This document shows, in pieces, positions 6,645 through 32,000 of a DNA stretch of 32,000 nucleotides. Each line of letters opens with the position of its first letter. Within the stretch, counting starts at the first letter, position 1. The DNA lies in the NCBI GenBank assembly GCA_001761425.1, contig CP012986.1, positions 1,080,001 through 1,112,000 on the forward strand. Direction: 5' to 3'. Under the pieces are notes generated by a model. The model did no database searches. It was not told where the DNA came from and was given only the letters and a program-made list of their open reading frames with translations. The position numbers and the translations under genes are program-made. The DNA comes from Candidatus Saccharimonadota bacterium (GTDB lineage Archaea > Nanohalarchaeota > Nanosalinia > Nanosalinales > Nanosalinaceae).

Positions 6645-7987
6645 ATGGAAGAAGTTGTTATTGTTGGTGGAGGTCTAGCAGGTTTGAGCGCTGCTGTTGA
6701 CCTTGTTGAGGATGAGGATACAAATGTTACTGTACTTGAGAAAAACGGTCATCTGGGCGGTAGAGCAGGGAATAAGATTGATCCTGTGGAGGAGGATCCT
6801 GTACCGATCGCTCCGCATATCTATGTAAGTTTCTACGATGAATTGAAGAGTTTCTTCAGTAAGATTGGTTCGGAGGACGCAATATACTGGGAGGATGGCC
6901 AGATATGCGATGTCTACTATGAAGGCGAGTTTTCAACGGTAAAAACAGGTCACCTAAAGCCTCCCTGGTATCTGGCATCTCTTTTCGCCAACTATCCGCT
7001 TTTCAGTACTCGTGAGATGTTAAACAATTTCAAGGTAGGGTCAAAGCTATACCTTCTAGATGAAGATGATATTGAAGACCTGGATGATACCACTGTTGAA
7101 GAATTTTTAAACGATCTCGGTGCGAGCAAAGGAGTGATAGATAAATTCTACAGGTTGATCTGCCTGGCACTTCTTAACGCACCTGTAGAGAAATGTTCCG
7201 CGGCAGAGTTCTGCAGGTTGATGAAGAATTTCATGAAGACAGACGGAAGAGACTGGGGGTACGCAAAGGGCGGACTCGGAGATGTCTATACAGAGAACGC
7301 TAGAGAGTTTATCGAGGAACATGGCGGCGAAGTAAGGATGAAAACCGCAGTTGAAGAGATAAAGTTTGAAAGCGAAGAGGTTACCGGTCTAGAACTTGAA
7401 ACCGGGGAGTATGTAGAACCAGATCAGATTATCTCTACTGTTCCGCCTACAGTGCTTAGAGACATTCTTCCGGAGGAGCAGATGGAGACAGAGTTCTTCT
7501 CCCATCTAGAGAACTTCCACGGTGTACCTTACTACTCTGCCTTCGCATGTTTGATGGTAAGGTAACCGATAAACGCTTCTGGGCCTTGATCGATGCTGAC
7601 AGAGACAAGTACTGGAATACTGACTTCTATGATAAAAGCAATATTCCGGGAGTAGACGAGGAAAACTCCTACATCACATCCAACATCATTAATACAAACG
7701 AGATGGAGGAAAAATCAGAAGACGAGATAATGGAAAAGACCAAGGAAGAAATCCAAGAGGCCTTCCCGGAAAACGAAGCGGAAGTCCAGCACTTTAGCGT
7801 TCACAGAATCGACTACGCACTGTACGAACCGGTAACAGGTATGAGAGAACACAAGTTACCGCATGAGACACCTGTAAGAAACTTTTATTTGGCAGGAGAC
7901 TGGACAATCAAGGAAATACCACAGTGCATGGAAGCAGCAGTCAGAAGCGGAAGACGTACAGCGGAGAAAGTCTCCGAAAAGACCTGA
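6645..7987 (+). pseudogene. FAD-dependent oxidoreductase (amine oxidase / phytoene desaturase / HpnE-like superfamily) split by a frameshift near 7540-7550
   Basis: ORF 6645-7565 carries the N-terminal dinucleotide fold VVIVGGGLAGLSAAVDL...LEKNGHLGGRA. ORF 7547-7987 carries the C-terminal FAD-closing motif FYLAGDWT...PQCMEAAVRSGRRTA. The two overlap by 19 nt in different frames and together give about 450 aa, the normal size of one such enzyme. Confidence 0.7.
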
Positions 7988-21571: not shown

Positions 21572-22840
21572 ATGAAGAAGATAGCCATAGCAGTTCTGAC
21601 AGCGGTCCTCCTCATCTCCACAGCATCAGCACAGACTTGGCACAACACAGAACAGCAAACTAATCTTGACGCGGAAGACGATGAATCAGGAGTTGAGGAT
21701 ACATACTACTGCATCGACCAGAGCGATGAATGCGGCCCAAAGGAAGACGGAGAAGAATACAATGAAGGAGAAACAATAGATATCACAGATGAAGGTATAA
21801 ACTACCTCAGATACTTCTCCGAGGACAAGGTAGGGAATGAGGAAGAAACACAGTCAAGAATTTTCAGACTTGACTTCACCAATCCGATCAGTGAAAGCAA
21901 CTACAGCGGCGGATGGTATAACGAACCTGTCACAGTCGAGATCTCATGCAACGATCCAGAGGACCCCGAGCCCTCAGGTTGTGACACAAAGCAGATCTGT
22001 AAGGGGAGCTCATGCACACCGAGAGAAGGAGACACAGCCACATACAACTCGGAGGGCAGACACACCGCCAGATACAACTCCATCGACGTAGCAGGCAATA
22101 ATGAACCGGTAAACGAACAGGAAGTACTACTGGATTTCACATCTCCACAGGTAGCGGTACAGAAGGAGTCAGTGAGTTCTGAGACAATGAACGCTACAGT
22201 GGCATGTACAGATGAGATGTCAGGATGTGACGGATCAAGCCAGAGACTTTACACCTCCGATGAACCAGCTCTGAACTGTCCGACGGACGAAAGCAGATAC
22301 AACGAAGGATCCACCTATCAGGTAAACCAGCATCTCTGGGTATGTGCAGCAGCGAAGGATGAGGCAGGAAACTGGGCCTTCAGCAATCAGCCTGTAGAGT
22401 TCAGCGTAGGAACCCTGACAACAAACCTTGATTACCCTGGAAAACCAGGATCGGTAGTCACAAACATCGACTCCGCGATCCCGATAACACTGGAGATCGG
22501 AAACGAAGAAGAGGATAAGGATAGAACGATAAACATCTCGCTGGAAGGCCCTACACAGTTCGCTGATCAGTCAACCTGGAAAGAGATAGAACTTAACGGA
22601 GTAGAGAACCGGGAGTTCAACTTCATTGCGAGGCCTGAACAGGTCGGAAACACATCAGTCACTGTCAACATGAGGGAGAAGACAGAAGGGTTCACGATAA
22701 CGAAAGAGGTCAAAATGGAAGTGAGAGAAAGCGGTTCAAGAACAAGCAGTGCAGGAAGGGAAACACCTGGTATAGGCCTTTTACAGATAGCAGTACTGAC
22801 AGGTATAGCAGCAACGTACCTGGCCTTCAGAAACTGGTGA
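21572..22840 (+). CDS. Secreted surface protein with three Cys-containing Ig-like repeats and a PGF-CTERM-like tail
   Basis: Start at MKKIAIAVLTAVLLISTASAQ, 1 nt after the upstream TAA stop (21568-21570). The repeats end in FSEDKVGNEE, NSIDVAGNNE and AAKDEAGNWA. The C-terminus is SSAGRETPGIGLLQIAVLTGIAATYLAFRNW. Confidence 0.8.
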   Translation: MKKIAIAVLTAVLLISTASAQTWHNTEQQTNLDAEDDESGVEDTYYCIDQSDECGPKEDGEEYNEGETIDITDEGINYLRYFSEDKVGNEEETQSRIFRLDFTNPISESNYSGGWYNEPVTVEISCNDPEDPEPSGCDTKQICKGSSCTPREGDTATYNSEGRHTARYNSIDVAGNNEPVNEQEVLLDFTSPQVAVQKESVSSETMNATVACTDEMSGCDGSSQRLYTSDEPALNCPTDESRYNEGSTYQVNQHLWVCAAAKDEAGNWAFSNQPVEFSVGTLTTNLDYPGKPGSVVTNIDSAIPITLEIGNEEEDKDRTINISLEGPTQFADQSTWKEIELNGVENREFNFIARPEQVGNTSVTVNMREKTEGFTITKEVKMEVRESGSRTSSAGRETPGIGLLQIAVLTGIAATYLAFRNW

Positions 22841-22860
22841 AAAAAGGGGAAACGGTTGAG

Positions 22861-22886
22861 AGGCCTTTTTCTGTATTTTTCTATTT
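22861..22886 (+). terminator. T-rich tract (AGGCCTTTTTCTGTATTTTTCTATTT) between convergent genes
   Basis: Archaeal terminators are oligo-T tracts. This one starts 21 nt after the 22840 stop. Confidence 0.35.
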
Positions 22887-23480
22887 CAGCGACTCTCTTT
22901 CTCTGTCTCTCTTGTCCAGTGCTACTTCTACGGGTTCGTCTTCGTGTTCCTCGGCTTTCTGTATGATTTCCTGGACTTTCTTGTTTCCTGAGTGTCTTGG
23001 CTGTAGTTCGCCTCTGAATACGTCTTCAAGGTCTTTCCAGTCTTCTCTCTGGATCATTTGCTGGACTTCCTGCTGTTTCAGTGTGTCTACGAGCTGTTCC
23101 TGGTCCATGTCCTGGATTTCTTGCACGAGGCCTTGATCTTCCATCAGTTTTTGCTTTCTCTTCATTGCGATGAGGCCGTCTATGACTCTGAGTGCGTCCA
23201 TTATCTGTGCGTGTTCGTTGTGGTAGATGCTCATCTCGTCTTCTACTGATGCGATCTCTTCTGCCAGTTCTTCTTTGAGCATGTCGTCGTCTGTTTCTTT
23301 GAGGTGCTTGAATTTGGTTCTTCTTCTCTCTGCGAGGCCTTCGTGTTTCTGTCTTTTCAGGTCCAGTTCTGCCTTTAGTTCGGTTCTCTCCTCTTCAAGT
23401 TCATCTTGGTCCATGTCTTCAAGTTTGATCTGGTCGTCAGAAGTGAATTTCGACATTATGTTGCTGAGTACGCTTACCAT
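22881..23480 (-). CDS. Acidic coiled-coil protein; weak resemblance to the ESCRT-III/Snf7-PspA helical superfamily
   Basis: 199 aa predicted almost entirely helical with heptad-like charge patterning. Features: a short hydrophobic N-terminus (MVSVLSNIMSKF), a basic patch (LKRQKHEGLAERRRTKFKHLK) and an acidic C-terminus. The family call is a low-confidence impression. Confidence 0.6.
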   Translation of the reverse strand: MVSVLSNIMSKFTSDDQIKLEDMDQDELEEERTELKAELDLKRQKHEGLAERRRTKFKHLKETDDDMLKEELAEEIASVEDEMSIYHNEHAQIMDALRVIDGLIAMKRKQKLMEDQGLVQEIQDMDQEQLVDTLKQQEVQQMIQREDWKDLEDVFRGELQPRHSGNKKVQEIIQKAEEHEDEPVEVALDKRDRERESLK

Positions 23481-23519
23481 AAAGTTACAGTTGTCAGAGG
23501 CCTTAATTAAAACTCAGGT

Positions 23520-23828
23520 TCAGTGTGTCTGGCTGTAGACTTTCAGCCTGTACTGTAGTTCTTCATGGCATTTTTCGACAGGATCTCCGATATGGAAAAA
23601 CATCCTCATCCAGTTGCCTCCAACCTTGAACTCTATATTCGGAAAGACAGAACCATGGATTATTTTTGTGTCCTCTATCTCTGAGAAATGTACTTTGTCT
23701 ACAAGTTTTTGGTCTGGAAAGTTTTCTTGGATTCGCTTCCAGTCATCTGAATTATTTCTCTTCCTCTCGATATGGGATTCGGTGACCGCTACTTCACCTA
23801 GGTCGGATTCAAAACGTTCGACATCCAT
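23520..23828 (-). CDS. Hypothetical small protein, possibly a PH/GRAM-like beta-sandwich
   Basis: Start taken at MDVERFESDLGEV. It has alternating beta-like segments and a terminal helix (VHFSEIEDTKIIHGSVFPNIEFKVGGNWMRMFFHIGDPVEKCHEELQYRLKVY). Lies 39 nt upstream of the coiled-coil gene on the same strand. Confidence 0.45.
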   Translation of the reverse strand: MDVERFESDLGEVAVTESHIERKRNNSDDWKRIQENFPDQKLVDKVHFSEIEDTKIIHGSVFPNIEFKVGGNWMRMFFHIGDPVEKCHEELQYRLKVYSQTH

Positions 23829-23881
23829 ACAGAACAGTTCAACAGACAGGGATTTAACTCTTCTCAAAGAACGAGGTCTTT

Positions 23882-24400
23882 ATGACAGCTGATCTTGACT
23901 GGATCAATCTTGATGCGGACGAAGAAGTTCTCTGGGATGGAGAACCACGTATGAAAAGCATAATACCGGCACTCGCAATAGGTATTCCATTCTCCATATT
24001 CGGGATAGGCCTACTGATAATCGCGGGAGCATACCTCCAGATAAAAAACACCAGTTTCGTGGTAACCGATCAAGGCCTGTACAAGAAACAGGGGATACTG
24101 TCGCGTAGCGTCCAGAAAATAGGATTTGACAAAGTTCAAAACATCAGCTTCAGTCAGGGAATCTTCGGAACACAGTTCAACTACGGAAACATCGAGATCA
24201 GCACCGCAGGAGGATCAGGAGTGGAGATGCGGTTCAACAGCATTGACAACCCACGCGAAGTAGAACAGATAATCAACAAGCACCTGAAAAAAGAGAAAGA
24301 AAGCAAGGGGACAAAAGAAAGAAGAAGCGGAGACAAGGAACTGGTAGAGGAACTAAGAGAGATCAAAAGTCTGTTGAAGGAAATAAACGGGAAACTGTAA
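23882..24400 (+). CDS. Membrane-flanked bacterial PH domain protein (bPH_2 / DUF304, YdbS/YdbT-like)
   Basis: EEVLWDGEPRMKS, then two TM helices, then NTSFVVTDQGLYKKQGILSRSVQKIGFDKVQNISFSQGIFGTQFNYGNIEISTAGG...FNSIDNPREV. This is the typical bPH_2 layout. Confidence 0.72.
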   Translation: MTADLDWINLDADEEVLWDGEPRMKSIIPALAIGIPFSIFGIGLLIIAGAYLQIKNTSFVVTDQGLYKKQGILSRSVQKIGFDKVQNISFSQGIFGTQFNYGNIEISTAGGSGVEMRFNSIDNPREVEQIINKHLKKEKESKGTKERRSGDKELVEELREIKSLLKEINGKL

Positions 24401-24419
24401 CGAAAGGCCTTCCAATCTC

Positions 24420-25124
24420 CTATTCTTCTCCTATGTATTCTCCTTCCTCTCTTCTAAAATCATCTTCGTCCATTTCCTCTCTGACATGTGCTACGAGGCC
24501 TGGTGTCCGTGCGATTATGAAAAGGCCTTTACCGAGTCTGTAGTCCCAGTCGAGATCGCTCATGACTGCTGAGATCGCTCCGTCTACATTGATGACAAGA
24601 GGGATTTTCTTTTCGGCGAATACGTTTTTTATCTCTTTCATTTTTTCTGCGTATTCTCCTTTGAGGCCGAGATTTTCTGCTTTCTGGAAGATCTTTTCTG
24701 CTCTAGGATCTCTGTCATCGTATACTTTGTGGCCCAGGCCTGGTATCTTTTCTCCTCTCTCCAGATGTTCCTCTACTATTTCTTCTGGTGTTTTCTGTGA
24801 CTGTAGGGTTTTCATTCCTTCTTCGATTGCTCCCCCGTGTTTGTCTCCCAGTGCGAGGACTCCTGCTGCGACACCTGTGTTCATGTCGTTGCCTCCGCTC
24901 TGGACAGTCCTGGCCGAGACAGTGGATGGGTTTCCGACTCCATGATCGATACTGGAGGACAGTACTGTGTTAAATAGCTGTGATTCCTCCGCTCCGGGTT
25001 CTTCGCCTTTCAAGAGGAGCCAGATGGCGTCGGCGAATTCCATCCCCATGACTTTTTCCATATCCTGTCCACGTATTTTCCCGTCTTCGCCTGAAGACGC
25101 TATCTCGGTTCTCCACTCTGTCAT
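24420..25124 (-). CDS. Citryl-CoA lyase-like protein (short citrate synthase / ATP-citrate lyase C-terminal domain family)
   Basis: VLSSSIDHGVGNPSTVSARTV...GVLALGDKHGGAIEEG...IPGLGHKVYDDRDPRAEKIF...VNVDGAISAV...LFIIARTPGLVAHVREE are citrate-synthase-family catalytic His/Asp regions. At 234 aa it is much shorter than a full citrate synthase. Confidence 0.82.
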   Translation of the reverse strand: MTEWRTEIASSGEDGKIRGQDMEKVMGMEFADAIWLLLKGEEPGAEESQLFNTVLSSSIDHGVGNPSTVSARTVQSGGNDMNTGVAAGVLALGDKHGGAIEEGMKTLQSQKTPEEIVEEHLERGEKIPGLGHKVYDDRDPRAEKIFQKAENLGLKGEYAEKMKEIKNVFAEKKIPLVINVDGAISAVMSDLDWDYRLGKGLFIIARTPGLVAHVREEMDEDDFRREEGEYIGEE

Positions 25125-25215
25125 AAAGGTTTTTGAAACCTGAACGGATTTAACCTTTCTGAAACCGGCGAAAGATGAAAGACCTTATTTAATGCTTTCT
25201 ACCATTAACATGTAT

Positions 25216-25731
25216 ATGGAAGGCCATAAATTCGCTCTAGGCCTCTTTCTGGTTTTAATTGCCTCAGGATGTGCAGAAATAACCGGAGAGGTCTCAGAGA
25301 GCCCGAGCTTTGAGACCCTGGCTCTGGACGTAGAGACTGTTGAGGGTGTTACAGGTGCAGATTACAGGCCTTCAGACGGGAATCTCTCAGGTTCTTTTCT
25401 GAATATGAGTTCTATGGTAAAGAGGGTCGAGTCCTTCTTTGTCCAGGACGGCAATCTCTCCGAGGCCCCTGATTCAGTTCAGTCCATGGTCGTGGCTCTG
25501 AACAGCAGTTCAAACGATACTGTTACAGACATCAGTTTCGACAGGACTGTGGACATAGATGGTTATGAGGCCCGCAAGTTGAACTCGACAAATCAGACCT
25601 TGCTTTACAGCGAAAGAGATAATCTTTCGTTCGCCGTCAGAACTGAAGGCGACGGATTTTACAGCTCCGCCAGAAAACTTTACAGTGAGATAGCTGAAGA
25701 CATAGAATCCTTCGAAAATAGTTCTAACTAA
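25216..25731 (+). CDS. Secreted lipoprotein, hypothetical
   Basis: MEGHKFALGLFLVLIASGC lipobox. Start chosen at 25216 because a TTATTTAA box at 25185-25192 overlaps the track's ATG at 25192. Several N-x-S/T sequons. Confidence 0.6.
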   Translation: MEGHKFALGLFLVLIASGCAEITGEVSESPSFETLALDVETVEGVTGADYRPSDGNLSGSFLNMSSMVKRVESFFVQDGNLSEAPDSVQSMVVALNSSSNDTVTDISFDRTVDIDGYEARKLNSTNQTLLYSERDNLSFAVRTEGDGFYSSARKLYSEIAEDIESFENSSN

Positions 25732-26485
25732 ATCCCGTATCGACATAATCAATCCATCTTCTCTGCACAGACTCGTCCGGGCCGTACTCCTCCACAGCTT
25801 CTTCAACCGCTGTCTCCAGGAACTTCCTCTGGTAGAGATCGTTTCTTGACCTTAACTTCGGATCATCCATCTCATCTCCAGAAGGCATCCTGCCCTCAAG
25901 ATCAGACCTGTCCATATCAGCTCTTTGAAAAGGCCAAAGCTCGAACTCCGAAGCATAGCTGAGGCCTATATCATTCGGAGGCCCGTTCCTGTAATCATCG
26001 TGGAAACGGGAAAGCTCATCGCTCTCAGTGAAATCAAGATCTCTACGAAATAGTTCCATCTCAGAGAGAGCCTGTCCCTCAGCTTTCTCCGGTAAAACAC
26101 TGTGAACATAGTTCGTCGCTGCTCTGTAGGCCTTCTGTTCTCTTCTGATAATTTCTCCCAACCACTGATCGACCGAGGCCCTCATATAGGCCTCTAGATT
26201 GTCTATATCTTCGTCGAAGTCTATCTGAAGGGATGTTCTTCCACCTGGAAAGTTTTCGACGTAGATATGCATGTTTCCGTTCTGTATCTCAAGATCCTTC
26301 GAGTTTCCGTTCGGGTGAGGTGTCACATTGTATCCTTTGCGGTTGGCGTGTTCCCAGAGGGTGTCGAAATCAAGGAGGTTTCTGGAGCCTCCTGCCTCTG
26401 TTCCAAGAAATTCTCTGTCGTATGTATTTTCCTCACGGTCGAATTCTCCCGGACCGAAGATCTCCTCAAAGCCTAGGACAGTCAT
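25724..26485 (-). CDS. Hypothetical acidic protein
   Basis: 253 aa with composition like the rest of the proteome. Lies 48 nt downstream of the SCS-alpha-like gene on the same strand. No motif recognised. Confidence 0.6.
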   Translation of the reverse strand: MTVLGFEEIFGPGEFDREENTYDREFLGTEAGGSRNLLDFDTLWEHANRKGYNVTPHPNGNSKDLEIQNGNMHIYVENFPGGRTSLQIDFDEDIDNLEAYMRASVDQWLGEIIRREQKAYRAATNYVHSVLPEKAEGQALSEMELFRRDLDFTESDELSRFHDDYRNGPPNDIGLSYASEFELWPFQRADMDRSDLEGRMPSGDEMDDPKLRSRNDLYQRKFLETAVEEAVEEYGPDESVQRRWIDYVDTGFS

Positions 26486-26533
26486 ACATCATAACTGTGC
26501 GGGAAGTTTTTACCAAGTTATGGAGGAACATAT

Positions 26534-27427
26534 CTAATCCAGTACATTATCCAGCATATCACCGATCTCATGGTGAACATCTGCGACGTGAGCACCGGCC
26601 TGTTTCAAGGCCTTTTCTTTGTGGCTAGGCTTCCCACGATCTCCTCTTATGATCGCTCCTGCGTGGCCGTACTTTTTCTCCGGCATATCCTCCGTGAACT
26701 TTCCGGTTATATACACTACCAGGGGCTTCGTGAACTCTCCTTTTTCCACGAATTCAGCGGCTTTCTCCTCGTAAGTTCCTCCTAGCTCTCCAAACAAGAC
26801 GACAGCCTCAGTCTGGTCATCCTCCTCGAACTTTTCCAGTGCGTCTTCAAACGCAGTTCCTGCAATAACATCTCCGCCAAGGCCTGCGGCGGTAGAAACT
26901 CCATATCCTGCCTGTCGGACAACCCATGAAGTTTCCGTTGTCATTCCACCGCTCTTGGAGATTACCCCTACCTTCCCTTCTCTGTAGACTCTCTCAGGTT
27001 TGTTTCCTCCGATAGGCCCGAGCTTTGCTTTTCCAGGAGAGATGATACCTACGCTTGTAGGACCTACCATCGTCGCATCGTATTCCTGAACTTTCTCGTA
27101 TATCTCCCAGGCATCCCTCGTCGGAATCCTTTCAGTAATAACGTTCAATGTCTCTACACCGTTTTCCAAGGCCTCGAATACAGCGTCTCTAGCGGCGAAA
27201 GGCGGGACATAGATCAGTGAAGTATTTATGCCTGGATGCTTCTGTAAGGCCTCCCGGACGGTGTCATAGACCGGTACGCCTTCAACTTTCTGCCCTCCCT
27301 TGCCGGGAGTTACGCCCGCAACGACGTCGGTACCGTACTCGATCATCTCCGGGACCTTTTCACTTGCCTCCCTGCCCGTGATCCCTTGAACCAGAACCTT
27401 GGTATCTTCATCTATGAGTATACTCAT
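26534..27427 (-). CDS. Succinyl-CoA synthetase alpha-type subunit (CoA-binding plus phosphohistidine domain); candidate citryl-CoA synthetase / ACL small subunit
   Basis: LVQGITGREAS...YGTDVVAGVTPGKGGQKVEGVPVYDTV and the phosphohistidine loop KKYGHAGAIIRGDRGKP. Confidence 0.9.
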   Translation of the reverse strand: MSILIDEDTKVLVQGITGREASEKVPEMIEYGTDVVAGVTPGKGGQKVEGVPVYDTVREALQKHPGINTSLIYVPPFAARDAVFEALENGVETLNVITERIPTRDAWEIYEKVQEYDATMVGPTSVGIISPGKAKLGPIGGNKPERVYREGKVGVISKSGGMTTETSWVVRQAGYGVSTAAGLGGDVIAGTAFEDALEKFEEDDQTEAVVLFGELGGTYEEKAAEFVEKGEFTKPLVVYITGKFTEDMPEKKYGHAGAIIRGDRGKPSHKEKALKQAGAHVADVHHEIGDMLDNVLD

Positions 27428-28062
27428 TTCGAGTCAACCTCCTTCAAGGCCTCTCTCACGTTCTCACAGGTAAGTTTATGGATGGTAGGTCCTTTAAAGC
27501 CCGAGTTGAACACATGGTAGTTATCGTTCCATACGAAATGCATACCCTCCTTCTCAGCGGCCTTATCTCTGTCCACGTAGTTCCCGAAGTAGACGAATCT
27601 ACCCGCGTCTTCATCCCTCTGCTCGATGAAAGCCTGGAAAATCCTTCTATCCGGCTTTTCAACGCCAACTTCCTCGGAAACAACGAAGCCCTGATAAGAA
27701 AGGCCTTCCTGGTTGAACAGCTCTTCGTAAAAGTTTTTCGCAGCGATGGAGTTGTCGCTGATGAACCCTATAGGTCCGAAATCTTCGTTAATCCTTTTCA
27801 GCTCTTCTATCACGTTTTCTCTGAGGAAGTCGCGCTCCCAGTCAAGGTAAGTCTTCTTCAGCTTCTCCGCGTCCGCCTCTATACTGTGTTTTTCCAGCCA
27901 GGCCTCGACCTCGGATGGCTTGTAGATGTTGTACTCGTTTATCGGGAGTTCAGGAGCATCTTTTACTCCTTCACGTCTCAGTTCTTCGTGGACTTTCTCG
28001 TTTATCTTCTCGTGGGATGGTAGCAGGGTGTCGCCGATATCGAATACAGGTATTTTATTCAA
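27424..28062 (-). CDS. HAD-superfamily protein with atypical motif I (FDIGDTL), paralogue 2
   Basis: IPVFDIGDTLLPS (motif I variant), GFISDNS (motif II), VGVEKP (motif III Lys) and FVYFGNYVDRD (motif IV variant). Shares 4-nt and 8-nt overlaps with its neighbours. Confidence 0.78.
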   Translation of the reverse strand: MNKIPVFDIGDTLLPSHEKINEKVHEELRREGVKDAPELPINEYNIYKPSEVEAWLEKHSIEADAEKLKKTYLDWERDFLRENVIEELKRINEDFGPIGFISDNSIAAKNFYEELFNQEGLSYQGFVVSEEVGVEKPDRRIFQAFIEQRDEDAGRFVYFGNYVDRDKAAEKEGMHFVWNDNYHVFNSGFKGPTIHKLTCENVREALKEVDSK

Positions 28063-28705
28063 GGTTACTGATCACCTCTCTTAGCTTCTCAAATTCAAGT
28101 TCGTCTATCTCAGGGCCTTCAAAGCTGGAGTTGACTGTATCAAACTGCGTGACCCAGATGTACTTCATACCTGCGTCCAGTGCTCCTGAATCTACCTCTG
28201 CATCATTTCCTATGTAGACAAATTCCCCGGGAGGCCTCTCTCTTTTCTCTGTAAAGGCCTTGAAGATCTCAGGGCTTGGTTTCTCCACACCTACCTCCTC
28301 GGAGACTACTATCGTATCATAGTCGACCTCATGTTCGTCAAGCAGCTTCTTCATAAGGTTTTTGGCCTCTACAGAGTTGTCGCTGATGATTCCTACAGTT
28401 CCGAACTCTCTGTTGCATTTTGCGAAGAGATCAAATACACCATTTTCCATCATAAGATCCTCGAAGGCCTCCAGATACCTTTTCCTGCAGCCATGAGCCA
28501 GTTCCCTGGGATCGCCGTCTATATCATATTTTTCAAGATACTGTTCAATCTGGCTCGGATCATACATCATGAACTTGTCAGGATCGAAATCGTGGACAAC
28601 TTTATGATTCCTCTGACGCAGTTCATCCTCGATGACGTGTGAGGCAAATTTTCTTGAAGGAACCAGGGTATCTCCTATGTCAAAGACAGGTACAAATCCG
28701 CTCAT
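28055..28705 (-). CDS. HAD-superfamily protein with atypical motif I (FDIGDTL), paralogue 1
   Basis: VPVFDIGDTLVPS, GIISDNS, VGVEKP and FVYIGNDAEVD. Clearly a paralogue of 27424-28062, sharing for example the 16-nt string GAGTTGTCGCTGATGA. Confidence 0.78.
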   Translation of the reverse strand: MSGFVPVFDIGDTLVPSRKFASHVIEDELRQRNHKVVHDFDPDKFMMYDPSQIEQYLEKYDIDGDPRELAHGCRKRYLEAFEDLMMENGVFDLFAKCNREFGTVGIISDNSVEAKNLMKKLLDEHEVDYDTIVVSEEVGVEKPSPEIFKAFTEKRERPPGEFVYIGNDAEVDSGALDAGMKYIWVTQFDTVNSSFEGPEIDELEFEKLREVISNLE

Positions 28706-29847
28706 TCAACACCACCCTTGTACTCTTTAACCATCTCCATTAAATCTTCTGCGGACTGTGTCATAGGCTTGTCATTCCTGAAAAGTTTCATGTTTAGACC
28801 TAGCTCCTCTTTCTTCTCTCTAAGCAGTTCGAAGGCCTTGTCCGCATGAGGCCCATCTCTACGCACGACGATCGGATAATCAGGTTTTTCCTCCTCCAGG
28901 GCCTGGATAAAGCCTTTCATAGTCCTGAGAATGTCTGTATTGTTTGCTGTTCCTCCGACATGCCATAGACCGTTCAGATCTTTCGACATGATAACCTTTG
29001 CGAGCTTGTAAACTTTTTCTGTCGGCGGATTACCTCCGTACTCCGTGTAGTTTGCTGGTTCTCCGCCGTATTCGATCAATGCATCTGTGTTGGTTAAGCT
29101 TGCGCCTCCGCCAGCCAGCATCATTCCGATATCGCCTTCAAGTTCAGTATATTTTCCTGCAACCCCTCTATGGTCCTGTTCATCGATTTTTTCCGCACGC
29201 AACTCTCTAGAAGTTTTTTCACGGCCAAGATCCGACCTTTCCGGCAGCTCCCGGTCATGCCTGTAACTTGCGTCATTGTCCAGATCCATCATCGCATCCA
29301 GGATAATGTAACCGTCCTCCGTCTTCGCCAGTGGATTTACCTCCAGCAAGCGTGCATCTTCCTCCAGAAAGGCCTTGAACATCTTCTGAAGCACTTTTCC
29401 AAGGCTGACGATTTCCTTTCCTTCAAAGCCATTTTCTTTCAGGAACTGTCTGAAACGGAACTGAGAACTGTCTTCCAGCGGAAGTTTTGAGGCCTCTCTG
29501 TCCTCTATCCCTGAGCCTCCCTGTTCCGAGAATATCATAGCCGGTTTTCGCGTGTCTGTATCGTAGATGAATGATACGTAGTATTCTTCTTCAAAATCTA
29601 TCTGTTCCTCGACTAGAACTTTCTGTACTTCTTCGCCGTCGATCCTTCCACCGGTCATTTCGCTTTCAACTACCTGTACTTCCTTCCTGTTCTCCGCGAA
29701 CCTGATTCCACCCTTCTCCTTCCTCTTGTTGGCCAGTACCTGGGCCTTAACAACGTATTCTCTATCGTCATGTTGAAGGCCTTTCTCTGGCGTTTTGAGG
29801 CCGTTTCTTTCCAGTATTTCTTTGGCCTCTTGTTCGTGGAGTTTCAC
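28702..29847 (-). CDS. ATP-grasp beta-type subunit of the succinyl-CoA synthetase / ATP-citrate lyase family (ACL-like features)
   Basis: MKLHEQEAKEILERNGL ATP-grasp N-terminus. MLAGGGASLTNTDALIEYGGEPANYTEYGGNPP and VGGTANNTDI...IVVRRDGPHADKAF resemble the ACLY blocks AGGGASVVY...ANYGEYSGAP and GGSIANFT...VRRGGPNYQEG more than the SCS-beta block NGAGLAM...PANFLDVGGGA. This comparison is from memory. Confidence 0.88.
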   Translation of the reverse strand: MKLHEQEAKEILERNGLKTPEKGLQHDDREYVVKAQVLANKRKEKGGIRFAENRKEVQVVESEMTGGRIDGEEVQKVLVEEQIDFEEEYYVSFIYDTDTRKPAMIFSEQGGSGIEDREASKLPLEDSSQFRFRQFLKENGFEGKEIVSLGKVLQKMFKAFLEEDARLLEVNPLAKTEDGYIILDAMMDLDNDASYRHDRELPERSDLGREKTSRELRAEKIDEQDHRGVAGKYTELEGDIGMMLAGGGASLTNTDALIEYGGEPANYTEYGGNPPTEKVYKLAKVIMSKDLNGLWHVGGTANNTDILRTMKGFIQALEEEKPDYPIVVRRDGPHADKAFELLREKKEELGLNMKLFRNDKPMTQSAEDLMEMVKEYKGGVE

Positions 29848-29915
29848 ATCTGGGAATTTTTTCTGAATGTTTAAATTTCGAAAGGCTGAAAACCATGGAG
29901 CTACAGTTTTTATTC

Positions 29916-30434
29916 ATGGTTTATACTGGACGTGGAGACAGAGGAAGAACCGATCTCTCCTCGGGGGAGAGAGTTTCCAAAAGTTCTGAAAGGATCGAGG
30001 CCTACGGCACGGTTGATGAATTAAACTCTCTTCTCGGAGTCTGCAGAAGCTTTACGGAAGACAAAGATAAAGAGATTGAAGAGATACAGAACGAGTTGCA
30101 TATACTTCAGGCAGAGCTTGCGAACCGTGAACCGGAGACAAAAGTCACTGAGGAAAACACTGAAAGACTCGAAGGCCTCTGCGATAAGTACCAGGAAGAA
30201 TGTCCTCCGCTGACCAGCTTCATCCTTGCAGGAGGTACAGAAAGTGCGGCACAGTTACATAATGCTCGTTCAGTTGCCAGGAGAGCAGAGAGAAGAATTG
30301 TCAGGCTGGACCAAGACGAAGAACTCCGTGAAGAAGTCCTGGCCTATATCAACAGGCTGAGCGATCTTTTCTTCCTCATGGCAAGACATGAAAACTATCT
30401 AAACGATGTAGAGGAGAAAAATCCCAGGTACTAG
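29916..30434 (+). CDS. ATP:cob(I)alamin adenosyltransferase, PduO type
   Basis: MVYTGRGDRGRTDLSSGERVSKSSERIEAYGTVDELNSLLG...FILAGGTESAAQLHNARSVARRAERRIV...INRLSDLFF. Start at 29916 gives the canonical N-terminus. Confidence 0.9.
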   Translation: MVYTGRGDRGRTDLSSGERVSKSSERIEAYGTVDELNSLLGVCRSFTEDKDKEIEEIQNELHILQAELANREPETKVTEENTERLEGLCDKYQEECPPLTSFILAGGTESAAQLHNARSVARRAERRIVRLDQDEELREEVLAYINRLSDLFFLMARHENYLNDVEEKNPRY

Positions 30435-31189
30435 AGTTTTCTGTTCCACTCTGGAGAACAGAATTTTTCCTCCACCAGTTTTTCAGCTTCTTCAAGTTCC
30501 TCCTCAGTAAGGCCTTCTTCCACCGTTTTCCTGTCCTCTACAAATTTCTGTATCAAGGCCTGTATTACCTGTTTCCGTGAGGCCTCTGTATGGTCTTTAA
30601 TTTTTGATACTCTTTTCTCAGCTGATTTCACTGCTTTATCGGAGACCTTTTCTTTTCCGATCCTCAGGACTTTCAGCATTTCCTCTGTGTCAAGATCGTA
30701 GCTCATCGTTGTGTGGTGTAAAACTGCTTTCTGTTTCCTGAGCTGGGCAGCACCTCCAAGCTTTCCATCAGTGTGCTCGATATCGTTCAGAGGTTCGTAG
30801 CTCGCTTCAACGCCAAGATCGTTCAGGGCCTTGACCGCAAATTCATCCAGCTTCCTGTAGCTTTCCTCTACATCTTCCGGAACTTCGTCTTTCGGGATAT
30901 AGATAGAGTATGTTATCACGTTACCTGGCTCGCAGAACATTGCTCCTCCTCCAGTTATCCTTCTTACAACCTCTACGCCTTTTTCCTCAGCGTATTCATG
31001 CTCAACTTCATCCTGGTAGGCCTGAAACCTTCCGAACGGAACACTGGGTCCTTTTCTGTACCAGAACCTGAGTGTAGGCCTCATATCCACGTTATTCATT
31101 TTTTCTGTCAGCACTTCATCGATCGCATGATGCATCGCCTCAGAATACTCTCCCTCATTGATTACGCGCCACTTACTCATCTCTTTCAC
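30431..31189 (-). CDS. lplA: Lipoate-protein ligase A, catalytic (N-terminal) domain protein
   Basis: TLRFWYRKGPSVPFGRFQ...GVEVVRRITGGGAMFCEPGNVITYSI...KLGGAAQLRKQKAVLHHTTM matches the BPL/LPL catalytic domain, with the RRxxGGGAV-like motif and the lipoyl-AMP Lys region. Confidence 0.88.
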   Translation of the reverse strand: MKEMSKWRVINEGEYSEAMHHAIDEVLTEKMNNVDMRPTLRFWYRKGPSVPFGRFQAYQDEVEHEYAEEKGVEVVRRITGGGAMFCEPGNVITYSIYIPKDEVPEDVEESYRKLDEFAVKALNDLGVEASYEPLNDIEHTDGKLGGAAQLRKQKAVLHHTTMSYDLDTEEMLKVLRIGKEKVSDKAVKSAEKRVSKIKDHTEASRKQVIQALIQKFVEDRKTVEEGLTEEELEEAEKLVEEKFCSPEWNRKL

Positions 31190-31460
31190 CCTCTACAGCT
31201 TCCCTGAAGGCCTCAAAAACGTCTTCAGCGGAGAATCCTATCATATCGACATCTACCTCTTCCAGTTTCTCTACTACCTCTTCCTTCTCTGCCTCTGTTT
31301 CGAGGCCTTCCAGCTTTCTTTCAAGCTCCTCCAGTTTTTCCGGCGGTTCAAGGAAGAAGTCGCCTCTGATTTCTGCGTTCTCTATCTTTTTGTTTTCCTT
31401 CTCCAGTTCCAGCTTTATCATTTTTCCATCCGGGACTTTCCTTGAAGCTTTCAGAGTCAT
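31173..31460 (-). CDS. lplB: Lipoate-protein ligase accessory subunit (LplA C-terminal domain as a separate protein, LplB-like)
   Basis: GKMIKLELEKENKKIENAEIRGDFFLEPPEKLEELERKLEGL...MIGFSAEDVFEAFREAV resembles the LplA C-terminal domain. It overlaps lplA by 17 nt. Start taken at ATG 31460. Confidence 0.72.
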   Translation of the reverse strand: MTLKASRKVPDGKMIKLELEKENKKIENAEIRGDFFLEPPEKLEELERKLEGLETEAEKEEVVEKLEEVDVDMIGFSAEDVFEAFREAVEGERDE

Positions 31461-31612
31461 GTTTCTACACTTGGAGAGGCCTGAATAAAAACAGGATGGA
31501 AGCCTTGGGAGAATGGCATTCTTTTTCAACCAGCAGATTCTTTTTTCAGGTAGAGATAAACTGGCACAGCAGCAGATTTTTCCCTGCCTACAGCAATCTC
31601 GAGGTTTAACCA

Positions 31613-32000
31613 GTGAAAAAATGGAGATACATCCCGTTCAGGTACTACGACCCGTACTTCAAGACAGGCCTTAACAAGGCCTTGATGGAGTCAGCAAGGG
31701 AAACAGGCGAGAAAATTATCTTCCTTTCCGGATGGGAGAACGACTGCGTCAACATCGGCTACAGCCAGAGAATCGAAGAAGAAATAGACATCGGGGAGGC
31801 GGAGCACAGAGGCCTTGACATCGTCAGAAGGCAGGGCGGTGGAGGAACCACTTACCTGACAAGAGACGGAGAGATAACCTGGGGAATAGTCGCACCCGGA
31901 AAAGAGTTCCCGGACGATGTGAACAGTACCTACAGAAAAATCTGTAGCGAGATCGCTGAAGGCCTTTCAAAGATCGGAATAGAGGCAAGACACGAACCCA
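31613..32000 (+). CDS. Second lipoate/octanoate-protein ligase paralogue (5' part; continues beyond the window)
   Basis: A GTG start is forced by the in-frame TAA at 31607-31609. Translation is VKKWRYIPFRYYDPYFKTGLNKALMESARETGEKIIFLSGWENDCVNIGYSQ...GLDIVRRQGGGGTTYLTRDGEITWGIV. The out-of-frame ATG at 31621 terminates after 17 codons. Confidence 0.8.
   Translation, partial: MKKWRYIPFRYYDPYFKTGLNKALMESARETGEKIIFLSGWENDCVNIGYSQRIEEEIDIGEAEHRGLDIVRRQGGGGTTYLTRDGEITWGIVAPGKEFPDDVNSTYRKICSEIAEGLSKIGIEARHEP

Follow-up and report, generated by a model that had tools for sequence, protein, structure and literature searches.

What are two genes of the HAD superfamily doing between the large and small subunit genes of an acyl-CoA synthetase? 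The question is raised by a 32,000-nucleotide stretch of contig CP012986.1 (assembly GCA_001761425.1, positions 1,080,001 to 1,112,000), the whole of which is referred to here as the window. A preliminary description, made from the letters alone, had reported a gene resembling the beta subunits of ATP-citrate lyase (ACL) and succinyl-CoA synthetase (SCS), two HAD genes, an SCS alpha-like gene and, further downstream, a citrate-synthase-family gene, all on the minus strand. An open reading frame (ORF) listing over window positions 22000–32000 reproduced every coordinate and strand, together with the overlaps calculated from the ORF coordinates (4 nt for beta/HAD1, 8 nt for HAD1/HAD2 and 4 nt for HAD2/alpha), and Pfam and NCBIfam profiles upheld the domain assignments (Table 1). 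The genome had been guessed, correctly, to be reduced and host-dependent: the window comes from Nanohaloarchaea archaeon SG9, a tiny halophilic symbiont in which a protein with 100% identity to HAD1 is found. The region very probably encodes a citryl-CoA synthetase (CCS) and a citryl-CoA lyase (CCL) of the Hydrogenobacter type, a two-enzyme, ATP-dependent route from citrate to acetyl-CoA and oxaloacetate. The HADs would be accessory proteins of the synthetase, and this overall explanation is the one that we favor on balance.

The 234-aa protein downstream of the alpha gene scored 240.7 bits against the NCBIfam model for citryl-CoA lyase (NF004869), above the cut-off of 212. Its best match in the Protein Data Bank (PDB) was Hydrogenobacter CCL (6hxp_A, 197.5 bits), followed by a citrate synthase with 85 bits. 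The match to PF00285 covers profile positions 146–351 only. The protein had been singled out for its citryl-CoA-lyase-like size, to which the alignment adds an intact His/His/Asp triad consisting of His96 (KHGGA), His132 (GLGHKVY) and Asp181 (NVD), which aligns with the triad of citrate synthase.

The beta subunit matches Pfam ATP-grasp_2 (PF08442, 103 bits) and Citrate_bind (PF16114, 89 bits). It reached 194 and 190 bits against the two NCBIfam models of SucC and failed both cut-offs (370 and 376, respectively). The PDB sequence search gave the CCS large subunit of Hydrogenobacter thermophilus as the best match (6hxq_B, 198 bits), with lower scores for Chlorobium ACL-beta (142 bits) and Thermus SCS-beta (136 bits). 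The substrate loop (G298-GTANNT-304) is of the ACL/CCS type and the RR-x-GP motif reads V-R329-R330-DGP; both are kept in all 44 nanohaloarchaeal orthologues. In a rough neighbor-joining (NJ) tree of 121 diverse representatives and the CcsA and AclB fragments from the PDB matches, the window beta was placed in a six-taxon clade with CcsA, while AclB and all sequences with an SCS-type loop fell outside.

The alpha subunit is composed of CoA_binding (PF02629) and Ligase_CoA (PF00549) domains and carries the phosphohistidine loop GHAGA at residues 254–258 (His255), which is present in 81/81 orthologues. Its scores against the SucD NCBIfam models (316 and 312 bits) lie just under both cut-offs (353 and 336). 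Archaeal SucD (Aeropyrum SCS-alpha, 297 bits) is a better match than CcsB (Hydrogenobacter CCS small subunit, 254 bits), and the alpha sequence taken alone is therefore not diagnostic of CCS.

GTDB species genomes were scanned with an alignment of the CCS large subunit, which gave 80 loci that were annotated by script (loci and proteins are denoted below by our identifiers, L and P). The beta, alpha and CCL genes are clustered in most of 85 related loci, and alpha and CCL are unfused in all of them. CCL directly follows or overlaps alpha in many genomes, and in the window the two are separate genes 1.4 kb apart. This clustering across related loci supports the CCS and CCL module independently. 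On every count that can be judged from sequence, the module belongs to the CCS/CCL family. By the same evidence it is not SucCD, because the model cut-offs are unmet, and not ACL, because alpha and CCL are unfused. The ACL/SCS beta-like and GHAGA-containing alpha-like identities given to the two synthetase genes are borne out by Pfam and motifs. The proposed two-step synthetase and lyase route likewise agrees with the best PDB matches (Hydrogenobacter CcsA and CCL), the passed CCL model, the citrate loop and the triad; the phylogeny that had been suggested for separating beta from ordinary SucCD groups it with CcsA.

The citrate module itself is not new in Nanohaloarchaea, because CCS and CCL in this group have been published: they were discussed by Vavourakis et al. 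(2016, PMC4766312), and a 2022 preprint (bioRxiv 10.1101/2022.10.25.513756) placed nanohaloarchaeal sequences with CCS and CCL by phylogeny, in agreement with the identities given here, and described the two as the only enzymes of the reductive tricarboxylic acid (TCA) cycle in nanohaloarchaea. Tricarboxylate transporters, pyruvate dehydrogenase (PDH), malic enzyme and AcdA have been predicted in cultivated nanohaloarchaea (Reva et al., 2023, PMC10266531), which fits the scavenging of citrate.

Table 1 Predicted genes of the CCS/CCL region and their neighbors (positions in the window).
Feature	Position	Strand	Description
Beta-like gene, CCS large (beta, CcsA-like) subunit	28702-29847	-	381 aa, GTG start; ATP-grasp and ACL-type citrate-binding domain
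HAD1	28055-28705	-	216 aa; HAD-IA fold, C1 cap; Pfam HAD_2 and Hydrolase
HAD2	27424-28062	-	212 aa, TTG start; Pfam HAD_2 and Hydrolase; FDIGDT and GN motifs
Alpha-like gene, CCS small (alpha, CcsB/SucD-like) subunit	26534-27427	-	297 aa; CoA-binding domain, phosphohistidine loop
Unknown acidic protein	25724-26485	-	253 aa; between alpha and CCL
Lipobox protein (LIASGC)	25192-25731	+	179 aa; interrupts the alpha-CCL interval
Citryl-CoA lyase (CCL)	24420-25124	-	234 aa; citrate-synthase C-terminal-type domain only
PduO-type ATP:cob(I)alamin adenosyltransferase-family gene	29895-30434	+	Divergent from the CCS operon; Pfam Cob_adeno_trans, 194 bits

The position between the beta and alpha genes is hereafter referred to as the slot. 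Both subunits are present in 42 nanohaloarchaeal loci, and 34 of them have a HAD in the slot, mostly with overlapping stop and start codons. A single HAD of the FDIGDT family was found in 30 loci, two HADs in 2 (the window and L013) and a divergent HAD (Pfam HAD_2) in 2 (L002 and L028); the slot is empty in the other 8, where beta and alpha overlap by 4 nt. The beta-HAD-alpha order was also present in 5/5 genomes of other nanohaloarchaeal lineages (Nanohalobium, Nanohalovita, Nanohalococcus, Nanosalina and H01), and a sister genome (L170, ~95% identity) has the identical two-HAD layout. On the beta tree, the HAD-less loci are scattered among HAD-bearing branches, deep ones included, which fits ancestral presence followed by repeated loss. 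In a metagenome scan seeded on the HAD, 19 of 21 true FDIGDT-family members adjoin CCS genes, although several of these contigs duplicate GTDB ones and not all are independent. The insertion is thus conserved in relatives, a point that had been proposed for checking. It is real, old and recurrent, and the beta-HAD-alpha arrangement is not due to chance, as it recurs in dozens of related genomes.

The two HAD genes in the window are paralogues, as had been stated, with 40% identity between HAD1 and HAD2. The emphasis on two embedded HADs needs adjustment: the pair is real in the window, but one HAD is the norm and two occur only in the SG9 lineage and a few others. On the HAD tree, HAD1 and HAD2 lie in two old paralogous lineages, and that of HAD2 is the single-copy HAD of several sampled genera; an origin of the pair by recent tandem duplication was ruled out on this ground. 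Both SG9 copies are under purifying selection: in comparison with L170, dN/dS was 0.22 for HAD1 and 0.16 for HAD2, comparable with 0.30 for beta, 0.25 for alpha and 0.23 for CCL. A recent chance insertion of the HADs was also ruled out, given their spread over the nanohaloarchaeal radiation with scattered losses and the selection on both copies. A soda-lake metagenome contig (L095, 2854–4139) has a further tandem pair of FDIGDT HADs between beta and alpha, which is independent of the SG9 pair and comes from other HAD sub-lineages. The other two-HAD locus, L013 (JBLGBK010000016.1), comes from a metagenome-assembled genome (MAG) labeled 'Colwellia polaris'. It has a typical nanohaloarchaeal beta-HAD1-HAD2-alpha-CCL organization with a beta of 74% identity, and the contig is probably mis-binned.

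The active site of these HADs departs from the canonical one. Motif I of HAD1 reads F8-D9-I-G11-D12-T13, in which Gly replaces the Asp two residues after the nucleophile (position +2). The other motifs are S108-D-N110 (motif II), K142 (motif III) and G166-N167-x4-D172 (motif IV, where the canonical GD is changed to GN). Of the acidic pair that motif IV, (G/S)-D-x3-4-D, provides for Mg2+ in canonical HADs, the first Asp is thus Asn here and a downstream Asp is kept. The segment V7–L14 (V-F-D-I-G-D-T-L) is invariant across 30 nanohaloarchaeal-family sequences with identities down to ~32%; the +2 Gly is accordingly found in 30/30, and the canonical D-x-D-x-T/V pattern does not apply. Within these 30 sequences there is no variation at Asp9, Thr13 or Pro143, and the conservation of Lys142, Asn167 and Asp172 is at least 90%. 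Both window HADs and most aligned members have the motif-II Ser. An intact pair of nucleophile and +2 Asp is missing from every lineage found in the slot (DIGDT, DFRDT, DFG[YH]T and NLDLT). HADs in the flanks of CCS loci served as an internal control for this comparison: near CPR-type (candidate phyla radiation) loci, 8/8 out-of-slot HADs have a canonical D-x-[D/E], mostly as FDMDGVLIDSE. These had been considered as distant partners of CCS and were ruled out, since they are of the canonical housekeeping type and occur at about the frequency expected by chance. HAD1 thus has the HAD fold but, since the defining D-x-D motif fails, is not counted here as a canonical HAD phosphatase.

The AlphaFold2 (AF2) model of HAD1 has a pLDDT of 91.6. 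A Foldseek search of the PDB with this model returned NANP, beta-PGM, YfnB and CbbY with a probability of 1.0, TM-scores of 0.6–0.75 and at most 21% identity; these are generic HAD-IA C1-cap neighbors, and the search gave no functional lead. By sequence, the best PDB match of HAD1 was PH1655 with only 32 bits, and NCBIfam similarities of the HADs are weak (CTE7, YjjG and YihX-type phosphatases; 23–27 bits for the YihX type).

HADs of other lineages occupy the slot outside Nanohaloarchaeota. Among 39 evaluable CCS loci there, beta and alpha are directly adjacent in 26 and separated by more than 150 nt in 13, and HADs are encoded in 3 of the 13 gaps. Two are Woesearchaeota (L061 and L080; 251 aa, motif FDFRDT) and one is a CPR bacterium of the Woykebacteria (L072; 147 aa, capless, motif FDFGYT). 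Natural fusions were also detected. One of the diverse beta representatives, P0175 (561 aa), is a CCS-beta that carries a capless HAD at its C-terminus (motif FDFGHT), and P0316, 72% identical to P0175, is a second such fusion; both are proteins of DPANN-type archaea. Downstream of the P0175 fusion gene, contig L166 carries alpha, a CutA1 gene and CCL in this order; L169, the contig of P0316, ends inside the gene right after the fusion. The nearest unfused relative of P0175 (73% identity) has no HAD. An AF2 model of the natural beta::HAD fusion, for which the alignment held only two fused sequences, gave a pTM of 0.52 and a disordered linker.

SCS-type operons were encountered as well. In three freshwater sediment metagenome loci (L110, L111 and L146), an SCS-type beta with a NIFGG[MI]TKCD loop and an alpha are immediately followed by a HAD. 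The HAD of L146 has the motif FDAGNT with Gly at +2, and that of L110 has Ser at the nucleophile position. The HAD association may also reach ligase-family members other than CCS. Other occupants of beta/alpha gaps are a 23S-rRNA-IVP-family protein in a Blastocatellia MAG (L052, 7272–7676) and homologous small membrane proteins in MAGs labeled Gammaproteobacteria (L049, 7154–7408, and L055, 2956–3535). C-terminal extensions are also present in four CCS/ACL-beta-like proteins of 520–540 aa (P0304, P0242, P0253 and P0292); that of P0304 is a 4Fe-4S dicluster domain, and the other three have no Pfam match. In the DPANN-type archaeal loci around the beta::HAD fusion, an inositol-monophosphatase-family gene lies directly after CCL both with and without a HAD fusion (L166, 8688–9473; L168, 7931–8737).

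In the mechanism that we propose, ATP would phosphorylate His255 of alpha, by analogy with SCS and ACL, and the phosphate would pass to citrate to give enzyme-bound citryl-phosphate, from which CoA would displace it to form citryl-CoA. CCL would then split citryl-CoA into acetyl-CoA and oxaloacetate with His96, His132 and Asp181. In reverse, the pair could work as an ATP-yielding citrate synthase. HAD1 and HAD2 would be dispensable accessory proteins of the synthetase whose translation is coupled to both subunit genes. A functional coupling of the HAD to CCS is probable. Its physical association with CCS and its substrate are inferred.

The HADs keep the residues for phosphate binding and nucleophilic attack (Asp9, Thr13, Ser108 and Lys142), with the general acid/base gone (Gly11) and Asn167 in place of the motif-IV Asp. 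Such a site would be poorly suited to ordinary phosphomonoesters and compatible with high-energy phosphoryl groups on good leaving groups. Acyl-phosphates, phosphoramidates and glycosyl-1-phosphates would be of this kind, for which a general acid should not be needed. CCS would make exactly two such species, phospho-His255 and citryl-phosphate, at a site expected from the SCS analogy to be formed by the C-terminal domain of beta together with alpha; the HAD of P0175 and P0316, fused at the C-terminus of beta, would lie on that side. As substrates with good leaving groups would arise at the CCS site, our best guess for the HAD is a phosphoryl acceptor or phosphatase. It would accept or hydrolyze the phosphate of phospho-His or citryl-phosphate and thereby reset or tune the synthetase. 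Phospho-His or acyl-phosphate chemistry of the HAD is, by this analogy, a tentative suggestion. The wider proposal is put forward with equal caution: the HAD might be a third component of a DPANN/CPR-type CCS, either a His-to-Asp phosphoryl acceptor or a phosphohistidine/acyl-phosphate phosphatase, that is tethered close to the site formed by the beta C-terminal domain and alpha, resets or regulates the phospho-enzyme and was recruited independently several times.

Precedents for the individual elements are available. ACLY and SCS are classic phospho-His enzymes. A HAD without Asp at +2 can be active, as illustrated by the active alpha-glucose-1-phosphatase YihX of E. coli, which reads FDLGNV (PDB 8pno and 2b0c). 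LHPP, a HAD-family phosphatase of phosphohistidine and phosphorus–nitrogen (P–N) bonds, has been noted for Ser instead of Asp at +2; a histidine phosphatase is also known to act on the catalytic phospho-His of ACLY (PMC11277029). No literature link between YihX and acetyl-phosphate was found. The preliminary description had taken the HADs as a hint of an extra step or a different substrate. The unusual insertion is real, but with the HAD absent in 8/42 nanohaloarchaeal and most other CCS loci, it is better explained by an accessory or regulatory role than by an extra step that the pathway requires or by a different substrate.

Several observations weigh against this explanation. The alpha subunit is closer to archaeal SucD than to CcsB, and the trees are rough NJ trees only. 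The slot HAD is absent from 8/42 nanohaloarchaeal and 36/39 other CCS loci, from which it follows that CCS works without a HAD and that the HAD is dispensable. Two of the 21 metagenomic FDIGDT-family members (L087 and L089) are orphans that do not lie beside CCS genes. The fusion model has no confident inter-domain packing. The nucleophile is lost in some slot HADs (FNLDLT in L002 and L028), the motif-III Lys is lost in P0163–P0165, and Ser replaces the nucleophile in L110; these losses speak against a universal requirement for catalysis and favor a structural role in those lineages at least. Finally, ATP would be wasted if a phosphatase acted on the intermediates of CCS.

The losses just mentioned are the starting point for regarding the HAD as a non-catalytic subunit, a pseudo-enzyme or scaffold whose part would be to bind phosphate or citrate, or to stabilize or bridge a minimal DPANN-type CCS, perhaps by linking CCS to CCL for channeling of the labile citryl-CoA. 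The lack of the +2 Asp throughout the slot HADs is consistent with this view, as are the translational coupling, with stoichiometric expression, the fusion to beta, and the beta and alpha chains of nanohaloarchaea, which are shorter than those of Hydrogenobacter CCS. The conservation within the main family (Asp9, Thr13 and Pro143 invariant; Lys142, Asn167 and Asp172 at 90% or more) is, however, typical of a working active site, and the fusion model shows no fixed packing; we regard a purely structural role as unlikely. That same model, which predicts no docking, would suit HADs that are merely co-transcribed, ordinary small-molecule phosphatases (for instance for YihX-like glycosyl-1-phosphates, nucleotides or phosphoglycolate) with no mechanistic link to CCS. 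HADs are abundant and mobile, the slot HAD is dispensable, orphan copies exist (L087 and L089), FDIGDT HADs were found in soil contigs without CCS, and the NCBIfam similarities, weak as they are, point to CTE7, YjjG and YihX-type phosphatases. Mere co-transcription would leave unexplained that in Nanohaloarchaeota, Woesearchaeota and CPR alike the beta/alpha junction has received HADs of different lineages, that two natural beta::HAD fusions exist, that start and stop codons overlap on both sides of the HADs, and that the HADs in the slot all lack the canonical dyad while those nearby but outside it have it. This explanation is also rather improbable in our judgment.

The remaining alternatives concern the reaction itself. 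The module might run from acetyl-CoA and oxaloacetate to citrate and ATP, or its substrate might be a citrate analogue; in either case the HAD would adapt the module to the task. The CCS and CCL reactions are reversible in principle, and ACL runs in reverse in Desulfobacter. Nanohaloarchaea are fermentative, obtain acetyl-CoA via PDH and have no TCA cycle (PMC4766312, PMC10266531). Nothing in the sequence indicates a direction, and the citrate-contacting loop is conserved with characterized CCS and ACL, which speaks against another substrate; we consider such a change of direction or substrate quite unlikely. An ordinary SCS beside a truncated citrate synthase, with the HADs as a recent chance insertion, would agree with the similarity of alpha to archaeal SucD (297 bits) and with several database records that name these proteins succinyl-CoA synthetase. 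It is extremely improbable in view of a beta far below the SucC cut-offs and with the ACL citrate-binding domain and loop, a CCL above its model cut-off with an intact triad, a beta/alpha/CCL cluster kept across phyla, and a HAD kept across the nanohaloarchaeal radiation under purifying selection. The combination of SucCD with a truncated citrate synthase was ruled out by the cut-offs of the models, the motifs of the substrate loop, the ranking of the PDB matches and the genomic context.

The other genes of the region were examined for a connection to the module. Neither the 253-aa acidic protein nor the lipobox protein matched a Pfam or NCBIfam family. Homologues of the acidic protein occur in the same position only in L006, L037, L042, L102 and L170, while L007, L025 and L031 gave weak matches; those of the lipobox protein occur only in L006, L102 and L170. 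Both were set aside as parts of the module, being found only in a few related genomes. They are treated as a clade-specific insertion between alpha and CCL, and the acidic protein is probably not core to the module. The Cob_adeno_trans gene adjoins beta in most nanohaloarchaeal loci, as a rule on the other strand and frequently accompanied by LplA, and also adjoins the orphan HAD in L089; no such neighbor was annotated in non-nanohaloarchaeal CCS loci. Elsewhere in the window, a flavin amine oxidase (PF01593) at 6645–7987 on the plus strand is split over two overlapping ORFs, 6645–7565 (profile positions 1–288) and 7547–7987 (311–442). The split could reflect a frameshift, a pseudogene or a sequencing error.

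HAD genes between, or fused to, the synthetase subunits are apparently unreported: no report linking a HAD to CCS, ACL or SCS was found in the literature searched, the coverage of which is incomplete, so that this is absence of evidence only. CCS/CCL is the only TCA-related module in nanohaloarchaea and probably determines the way in which these symbionts draw acetyl-CoA and oxaloacetate from citrate taken from their haloarchaeal hosts. That a HAD with a crippled dyad is conserved, has been recruited repeatedly and in some cases is fused to beta suggests an accessory function of these minimal synthetases in phospho-enzyme control, proofreading or assembly. If the HAD is indeed a third component of CCS, it would represent an unrecognized principle of control or proofreading for the SCS/ACL superfamily, and its role would give a function to a subfamily that is annotated only as 'HAD family hydrolase'.

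The slot HADs resemble two characterized phosphatases in part. YihX is likewise a HAD-IA C1-cap enzyme with Gly at +2 (FDLGNV), but the similarity is very low, and YihX keeps the DD of motif IV and shows no association with CoA ligases in genomes. LHPP (phospholysine/phosphohistidine/pyrophosphate phosphatase) comes from another HAD subfamily, that of the C2 cap. It shares with the slot HADs a nucleophilic Asp without Asp at +2 and acts on high-energy P–N and P–O–P bonds (PMC11277029). Its +2 residue is Ser rather than Gly. The comparison is an analogy only, no homology closer than that of the superfamily having been seen. SucCD has the same fold and phosphohistidine mechanism as the window synthetase, normally with adjacent genes in beta-alpha order, and its alpha is very similar (297 bits for Aeropyrum SCS-alpha); the window beta differs in failing the SucC models (194 against 370 bits) and in its citrate-type rather than succinate-type substrate loop. 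Chlorobium AclAB (6hxj) is homologous in beta (142 bits), the alpha module (177 bits) and the CCL module (67 bits) and has the same overall chemistry. In ACL, however, a single polypeptide holds both the alpha and the CCL module and citryl-CoA does not leave the enzyme, whereas alpha and CCL are separate in the window; CCS/CCL is considered the ancestral form of ACL. Hydrogenobacter thermophilus CcsAB (6hxq) and Ccl (6hxp) are the same three proteins with the same domains, an identical citrate loop (GGTANNT), GHAGA and the triad. The window subunits, with 381 and 297 aa, are the shorter ones (429 and 353 aa in Hydrogenobacter), they come from a host-dependent archaeon that lacks the reductive TCA cycle, and one or two non-canonical HAD genes are embedded in the nanohaloarchaeal operons.

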